A DNA stretch of 13,925 nucleotides from a virus (lineage: Duplodnaviria > Heunggongvirae > Uroviricota > Caudoviricetes), in the IMG/VR virus record IMGVR_UViG_2684623077_000006; one strand, 5' to 3'. Below are positions 5,505 through 5,792 of the stretch, piece after piece (position 1 is the first letter of the stretch; the number at the start of each line of letters is the position of its first letter). The position numbers were made by a program, and so were the translations under genes. Below the pieces are notes generated by a model that worked only from the letters and a program-made list of their open reading frames with translations, made no database searches and was not told where the DNA came from.

Positions 5505-5520
5505 TTTTTTGTAATTGCTG

Positions 5521-5744
5521 TCTACCCTGTCTACCTGAGTAAAGAAAAATACATTTAATTCAGTGCATTAAGTTAGGTAGATAGCCTTTTTTTACTGTCT
5601 ACCCACTATCTACCCTCTCTACCTGATTTTACCTGAATCAGACAGGGAGGTAGACACGGGGTAGATACTGGATAAAAGCACTCTACCCCGCTGAAAGCCG
5701 CGCCATTACTGGTATGAGGGCCACTAAGGTAGATAAGGTAGACA
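5521..5744. repeat. Iteron array, putative satellite origin of replication
   Basis: At least 11 copies of the core TCTACC/GGTAGA in both orientations (direct at 5521, 5530, 5598, 5610, 5618, 5682; inverted at 5576, 5649, 5660, 5728, 5737), flanked by an AT-rich stretch at 5505-5520. Confidence 0.7.
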
Positions 5745-5792
5745 AGGGGAGGCACAACTCAAAACTTTTTAAACGAGGGGGTAAAAATAAAT

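Follow-up and report, generated by a model that had tools for sequence, protein, structure and literature searches.

The origins of the SaPI islands hold 6-12 short iterons that lie immediately 3' of rep in opposed orientations around an AT-rich centre, and SaPI Rep is a self-loading SF3 helicase that binds these iterons via its C-terminal winged-helix domain (PMC9371898). For P4, the roles of the domains of the alpha protein have been described, including that of its winged-helix origin-binding domain (PMC2777425). Closer still, pri-ori, pri-delta-ori and delta-pri-ori versions of the phage-inducible chromosomal island (PICI) EcCICFT073 were cloned into a temperature-sensitive plasmid (Fillol-Salom et al. 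2018, ISME J, PMC6092414); pri-ori supported growth of this plasmid at 44 °C and delta-rep gave no colonies (PMC6092414). Here, we analyze a 13,925-bp stretch of Caudoviricetes DNA (IMG/VR record IMGVR_UViG_2684623077_000006), which we call the window as a whole. A preliminary description, made from the sequence alone, had proposed that its positions 5505-5792, directly downstream of a gene read as a primase, form an iteron-rich origin bound by the adjacent primase/helicase, as in P4. We found that this gap is very probably the vegetative replication origin of a capsid-forming PICI, with eleven 8-bp iterons in two inverted arms. The origin as such is already known, as it belongs to the EcCICFT073 origin allele family described and tested in 2018. 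To this we add some modest points, namely the mirror-arm architecture, an apparent collinearity with P4 ori and crr, the co-variation of the iterons with the winged helix of the initiator, and a primase domain that seems to be missing.

Eleven iterons form two inverted arms downstream of the initiator gene

By enumerating the motif TCTACC/GGTAGA, we found 12 exact copies in the window compared to 3.1 +/- 1.9 in dinucleotide shuffles, and none of 200 shuffles reached 12. Eleven of the 12 are packed into the 222 bp between 5521 and 5742, where chance would give about 0.05, with six hexamers on the + strand (5521, 5530, 5598, 5609, 5618 and 5682) and five on the - strand (5576, 5649, 5660, 5728 and 5737). 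The claim of at least 11 cores in both orientations within about 230 bp thus holds, and the hexamer is not equally dense elsewhere in the island, its single other copy lying at 1158, inside the integrase gene. With the flanking bases, the repeat unit is an 8-mer, mostly TGTCTACC or TATCTACC, with the consensus TRTCTACC. The gap that holds the cluster (288 bp) is, as had been stated for the replication module, the only sizeable non-coding stretch, the sole one between 1870 and 6997. Since pri-rep, the initiator gene, ends with a stop codon at 5504 and the iterons start at 5519, the cluster lies immediately 3' of that gene.

The eleven copies make up a pseudo-palindrome of two inverted arms. The left arm reads ++, a 40-bp AT-rich spacer, -, then +++ (centre spacings 9/46/22/11/9), and the right arm (--+--, 11/22/46/9) is its mirror image with one copy fewer. 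The left arm starts with an outer pair of two TGTCTACC iterons on the + strand, 9 bp from centre to centre (5519-5535), whose positions are kept in 40 of 41 distinct relatives. Next comes the spacer (5536-5575), which is the AT-rich tract noticed beside the iterons in the preliminary description. It is 77% A+T, and its overlapping 30-mers (5531-5560) rank within the least stable 0.3% of the window. We therefore predict it to be the DNA-unwinding element of the left arm, a melting role that is also suggested by its position, matching that of the AT-rich spacer in P4 ori and in relatives from Serratia, Morganella and vB_KppS-Ant. A lone inverted iteron TATCTACC follows (5576-5583, - strand), then a T7 tract (5587-5593), and the inner triplet TGTCTACC, TATCTACC and TCTCTACC on the + strand with spacings of 11 and 9 bp (5596-5623), to which a degenerate fourth copy, TTTACC, can be added (5628-5633).

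The right arm begins with an inner pair, TGTCTACC and TATCTACC, 11 bp apart on the - strand (5649-5667), followed by a lone + strand iteron, ACTCTACC (5680-5687). Its spacer contains a G+C-rich block, CTGAAAGCCGCGCCATTACTG (5691-5711). The outer pair, TATCTACC and TGTCTACC, 9 bp apart on the - strand (5728-5744), repeats the outer left pair in inverted form, and the inverted repeat that includes both (5519-5540 and 5723-5744) is 86% complementary. Just outside this last pair lies an A-tract/T-tract element, AAAACTTTTTAAAC (5761-5774), which is followed by the next gene's ribosome-binding site and start codon. Rfam and tRNA scans returned nothing in the gap. Folded as single-stranded DNA, the gap gave z = -3.7. 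As the inverted iteron arms by themselves account for this value, we did not adopt a functional hairpin.

The gap is an allele of the tested EcCICFT073 origin

Over 3429-6634, the window and the replication module of EcCICFT073 (E. coli CFT073) have 91% identity. Within this module, the gap and its EcCICFT073 counterpart (9997-10284 of our EcCICFT073 sequence, L006), both 288 bp long, share 94.4% identity, and none of the 16 substitutions falls in an iteron core. The EcCICFT073 origin has 11 TCTACC iterons in identical order, orientation and spacing, also immediately 3' of pri-rep. Moreover, the initiators of the two islands are 90% identical and both islands share the gene order DUF4222 - Pri-Rep - ori - small open reading frame (ORF) - single-strand DNA-binding protein (SSB) - PerC, which other alleles have in common as far as SSB. 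The islands differ in that EcCICFT073 is a classical PICI, whereas the window island is a capsid-forming one with an HK97-type head and terminase module.

We mapped the primers given in the supplement of PMC6092414 onto L006. First, the pri-ori insert corresponds to 8200-10307. Second, the delta-ori insert ends at 10000, and the segment removed in pri-delta-ori is 10001-10307. From these primer positions, the deleted "ori" is equivalent to ~5509-5815 of the window. Several features by which a PICI origin can be recognized are found here: homology to an experimentally tested PICI ori, with the primers mapped, a location immediately 3' of pri-rep, and a repeat layout in which a ++ pair and an A+T-rich spacer are followed by iterons in both orientations. 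The origin interpretation is thus supported by the near-identity, with all cores intact, to a segment that was deleted as "ori", and the cloning experiment proposed in the preliminary description corresponds in essence to what had already been carried out with the sister allele EcCICFT073. A literature search of incomplete coverage, made to find more recent work on the origins of Gram-negative PICIs or a comparison of PICI and P4 origins in print, yielded nothing beyond PMC6092414.

Iterons are conserved while spacers diverge

We aligned 8 divergent E. coli alleles and compared the 66 core columns with the rest of the iteron field. Mean pairwise identity was 0.889 in the core columns versus 0.579 elsewhere (0.526 when one conserved block is left out), and none of 10,000 random placements reached the identity of the cores (permutation p<1e-4), which suggests that the iteron cores are under purifying selection. 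When 41 distinct sequences are compared, the iterons hardly vary in number, order, orientation or spacing while the spacers diverge, with two main layout variants (++-+++--+-- and ++--++--+--).

A pattern scan of viral contigs gave many chance single matches, so we restricted the analysis to loci that have 7 or more copies within 260 bp, of which there are 38. The distribution is bimodal, with 2-4 copies for chance matches and 8-12 for real clusters, and in 36 of the 38 clusters the 3' end of a Pri-Rep homologue lies ~20 bp away. The two others were rejected as members of the family: L131 is a coding tandem repeat, and L042 (7186-7460 of IMGVR_UViG_3300005939_000010) is an unrelated array in which GACTCTACC recurs in either orientation and near which no Pri-Rep homologue lies. 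The latter array may be another iteron origin with a similar core.

Two elements other than iterons are also conserved. First, the block CTGAAAGCCGCGCCATTACTG has at most 6 substitutions in 38 of the 41 distinct TCTACC-type origins and is exact in 27, and it is nearly invariant in alignments whose other spacers average 53% identity. It is not present in the TGTTCAC-type relatives described below; at one locus whose initiator is only 57% identical (L071), it is partly retained. Second, AAAACTTTTTAAAC is exact in 38 of the 41 distinct relatives. In all E. coli alleles, an AnTn tract (AAAACTTTTT and variants) lies just beyond the last iteron pair, as it does at ~4526-4534 in the Serratia relative and at ~4095-4104 in the Morganella relative, and AnTn tracts occupy the matching place after both crr units of P4 (L010, 4285-4590). 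Such a tract could be a bend or an unwinding element. In our scan of 5300-6000, no promoter or terminator consensus explained either CTGAAAGCCGCGCCATTACTG or AAAACTTTTTAAAC.

Iteron sequence co-varies with the initiator

A search of genome contigs with the Pri-Rep protein returned three loci only, which we used as distant relatives and which are too few for statistics. As for the more distant initiators, that of Serratia aquatilis (L008) is 53% identical and its iteron is TGTTCAC; in Morganella (L009), the values are 52% and TGTTCAT; in vB_KppS-Ant, an island-like "phage" (L011), the initiator is 41% identical and the iteron is TGTTCACC. These relatives all have a gap in the corresponding place and keep the layout, with a different repeat sequence, TGTTCAC(C)/TGTTCAT, that is the P4 type-1 repeat. 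In parallel, the ~100 C-terminal residues of the initiator are 83-99% identical within the TCTACC group but only ~33% identical to those of the TGTTCAC group. The iteron sequence thus co-varies with the initiator while the layout persists. A fixed layout together with the TCTACC-versus-TGTTCAC split offers a natural system for studying how a winged-helix initiator changes its specificity, and the split could be used to predict whether co-resident satellites share, or exclude, one another's replication proteins.

Pri-Rep resembles the P4 alpha helicase without a recognizable primase domain

Pri-Rep (582 aa; 3756-5504, + strand) is annotated as a primase and matches the Pfam families D5_N, DUF5906 and Pox_D5 as well as TIGR01613 (P4-family primase C-terminal domain), the latter above cut-off. 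In order, its parts are a Toprim-like domain at the N-terminus (aa 1-135), D5_N, the P-loop region of an SF3 helicase (DUF5906), and a predicted winged-helix origin-binding domain at the C-terminus (aa ~486-577, nt ~5211-5486). Its helicase and origin-binding part is 40% identical over 438 aa to residues 326-762 of P4 alpha. Residues 193-430 match the SaPI5 PriRep helicase (PDB 7OLA, E 1.4e-14), and residues 486-577 match the origin-binding winged-helix domain of P4 alpha (PDB 1KA8, E 6.8e-7).

The N-terminal part gave a different picture. The Zn-ribbon and Toprim domains that Pfam detects in P4 alpha were not found in Pri-Rep, hhalign found no relation between the N-terminal domain and the primase domains of P4 alpha and of the Morganella relative, and phmmer returned nothing for it among PDB sequences. 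We placed the catalytic Glu and Asp-x-Asp by comparison with the canonical Toprim motifs. At the presumed Glu position, the family alignment has Ala-Gly, and at the presumed Asp-x-Asp position it has Ala-Gly followed by residues that vary between homologues. Pri-Rep thus appears to be devoid of a recognizable primase catalytic domain, and we infer that it keeps a vestigial Toprim-like fold without the acidic motif. The gene product had been called a primase/helicase: the helicase half of this name stands, the primase half finds no support in these searches, and for that reason "initiator-helicase" is the safer name. If Pri-Rep is not a primase, annotation pipelines mislabel a very common gene. 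In other E. coli proteins (P0045, P0056 and P0080), the N-terminal domain is fused to AAA_25/RepA-type ATPases, so that it is apparently a module common to different helicase families.

A model for initiation

Taking these homologies together with what has been published on P4 and SaPIs, we propose the following mechanism. Upon induction of the island, the adjacent Pri-Rep would bind the iterons through its C-terminal winged-helix domain. Iterons 9-11 bp apart face the same side of the DNA helix, an arrangement that would help SF3 helicase hexamers, probably one for each arm, to assemble cooperatively. Pri-Rep would then melt the AT-rich spacer, that of the left arm being the likely first site, and load itself without DnaA. 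Pattern scans of the gap found no DnaA box, the sole match at no more than one mismatch (5791-5799) spanning the start codon of the next gene, and no IHF consensus, GATC or 13-mer pattern of DNA-unwinding elements; the lack of DnaA box, IHF site and GATC fits a self-loading initiator. The dyad arrangement would leave room for two opposed hexamers and for synthesis in both directions. Priming would probably be ensured by the host DnaG, because Pri-Rep seems to have no intact primase domain, and the SSB of the island may assist.

The island and the boundaries of its replication module

According to the ORF list and the domain annotation, all ORFs of the window are on the + strand, that is rightward, in an order that runs from integrase to TerL. 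The integrase gene (1-1239) is followed by alpA (1562-1858), two ORFs whose products have phage-repressor-like C-termini, and DUF4222 (3460-3759). Downstream of the origin, the replication module continues with genes for a 92-aa protein (phrog_1231, function unknown) and SSB (5793-6478). PerC is encoded 3' of SSB, and after it come the HK97-type capsid, prohead protease, portal, head completion protein, connector, HNH, TerS and TerL genes. No tail or lysis gene is present among the annotated ORFs within the window. With int, alpA, pri-rep, unidirectional rightward genes, a head and terminase set, and neither tail nor lysis genes, the element is, as judged from its gene content, a capsid-forming PICI of E. 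coli/Shigella.

The 501 bp around the gap have a match in 606 of 5,426 complete E. coli genomes (~11%), chromosomal every time. For the whole window, the best match among complete E. coli genomes has 88% coverage and 92% identity, and there is no near-identical copy. The closest match to the origin and primase gene is in Shigella flexneri SFBU1023. Homology among the E. coli alleles spans the initiator gene and the gap and ends at ~5822, and other genomes match only from 5825 rightward. The origin therefore moves with the initiator gene and not with the downstream genes. The homology break at ~5822-5826 is sharp, falls ~30 nt inside the ORF 5793-6071, and resembles a joint where recombination has linked the replication module to the modules downstream. 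With respect to EcCICFT073, only the replication module is closely shared (91%): identity is 79% for the integrase, and EcCICFT073 has no counterpart of the head and terminase genes. One replication cassette is therefore in use in both classical and capsid-forming islands.

Three other regions of the window deserve mention. Inside the mechanically called ORF 2771-3454 (+ strand), Rfam matches were found to the C4 antisense RNA (RF01695, 72 bits) and to the a1/b1 targets (RF03163), at 2809-2858 and 2926-3013, and in homologous islands "Icd-like cell division inhibitor" genes are annotated at this locus. For these two reasons, the island seems to carry a c4-icd immunity cassette of P1/P7 type, in which case the 5' part of this ORF is probably non-coding. 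The integrase-alpA interval (1240-1660) is strongly AT-rich (32-33% G+C in windows spanning 1201-1650), holds several of the least stable 30-mers and is presumably a regulatory region of the island. Finally, a non-coding gap between the HNH gene and terS (11346-11633) contains one of the window's least stable 30-mers (11601-11630) and is, by analogy, the expected place of a putative cos site.

Alternative explanations

Several points weigh against reading the gap as the origin in the way modelled above. [quoted passage not shown] Second, the contact between TCTACC and residues of the C-terminal domain of Pri-Rep is inferred from co-variation and from the homology to 1KA8. Third, the iteron model leaves the invariant G+C block (5691-5711) and the AnTn tract (5761-5774) unaccounted for, and both could stand for some further role, for example as a host-factor site or as a signal for downstream expression.

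Given these points, we considered other roles for the cluster. The one that survives best, improbable as we hold it to be, is that of an auxiliary cis element like P4 crr, either an initiator-binding enhancer or a "handcuffing" array for copy control, with synthesis starting elsewhere. P4 crr occupies exactly this place 3' of alpha and is made of the same kind of iterons, and between the right arm and a crr unit there is a broad collinearity that includes the AnTn tract. However, the left arm is like P4 ori in layout, in spacing and in having the AT-rich spacer, no second iteron cluster exists in the window, and a fragment with just pri-rep and the gap of EcCICFT073 sufficed for plasmid replication (PMC6092414).

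It is less probable still that the repeats are operators through which an island regulator (for example AlpA, PerC or the proteins with repressor-like C-termini) controls the SSB and packaging genes, even though the gap is directly upstream of the next gene block and the conserved non-iteron elements adjoin its ribosome-binding site. Between 5300 and 6000, the sigma-70 promoter scan gave one weak match on the minus strand, not above shuffles, and none on the + strand, so that a promoter reading of the gap is unsupported, and no intrinsic terminator was found on either strand. Besides, the repeats travel and co-vary with the initiator gene while the downstream genes are swapped at ~5822, P4 uses the same layout as its ori, and the homologous EcCICFT073 segment affects replication (PMC6092414). 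That the gap serves the terminase of the island as a packaging signal (cos or pac) can practically be set aside: capsid-forming PICIs do package their own DNA and TerS, TerL and HNH are all encoded in the window, but HK97-type cos sites normally adjoin HNH and terS, where the separate gap 11346-11633 lies, and the repeat region is shared by classical PICIs such as EcCICFT073, whose packaging module is different.

Comparison with known origins

The replication origin of this PICI resembles those of SaPIs in having iterons 3' of the initiator gene and an AT-rich centre, and the helicase domains are detectably homologous. SaPI iterons are nonetheless unrelated in sequence and shorter (5-6 nt), their host (Staphylococcus) is Gram-positive, and primase is, in SaPIs, either a domain by itself or fused in another way; beyond the helicase core, the likeness is one of organization only. 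With iteron plasmids (such as pSC101, R6K, RK2 and P1), the island has in common clustered, direct or inverted repeats that bind the initiator, an AT-rich unwinding element and an adjoining initiator gene. These plasmids, however, rely on RepA-family initiators that recruit DnaA and DnaB-DnaC at origins with DnaA boxes, whereas the initiator of the island is the helicase itself, and the DnaA boxes and/or IHF sites that accompany the iterons of a DnaA-dependent origin were not found in the gap, nor was GATC.

P4 is the more instructive comparison. Its RefSeq record (NC_001609) annotates type-1 repeats TGTTCACC both in ori and in crr, the latter immediately 3' of alpha. Read along alpha, P4 ori has the pattern ++-+++ and aligns over its full length with the left arm of the island, with centre spacings of 10/43/22/11/10 in P4 and 9/46/22/11/9 in the island. 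A crr unit (-++--, 14/18/43/9) is broadly collinear with the right arm (--+--, 11/22/46/9), including the outer AnTn element. Both systems use 8-bp iterons in both orientations and initiators with homologous SF3 helicase and winged-helix parts. On the other hand, the island iteron TGTCTACC differs from TGTTCACC at 2 of 8 positions, P4 keeps ori and crr ~4.5 kb apart while the island has both arms in one 222-bp cluster, and P4 alpha has a DnaG-type primase (Zn ribbon plus Toprim) that Pri-Rep seems to be without. The analogy drawn in the preliminary description is therefore apt for the position of crr 3' of alpha and for the ++-+++ layout of ori, and it fails in two respects, as the gene content is that of a PICI and not of a P4-like satellite, and a single cluster replaces the ori-crr split.

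The organization of Gram-negative PICI origins was stated to be "shared by no other known replicon" (PMC6092414). Our comparison with P4 suggests otherwise. As the left arm resembles P4 ori and the right arm a crr unit, the island origin looks like both elements joined head to head. A joint reading would have the PICI origin as a compact, mirror-duplicated P4 unit, in which an ori arm and a crr arm were fused and load two opposed hexamers, the iteron switched from TGTTCACC to TGTCTACC (a TC/CT swap) along with a diverged winged helix, and the primase of Pri-Rep became vestigial so that the host DnaG is needed. We put this forward tentatively, as plausible and just short of likely. The collinearity with P4 ori and crr would give the replication modules of PICIs and P4 one ancestry, and it suggests that crr is a second origin arm.
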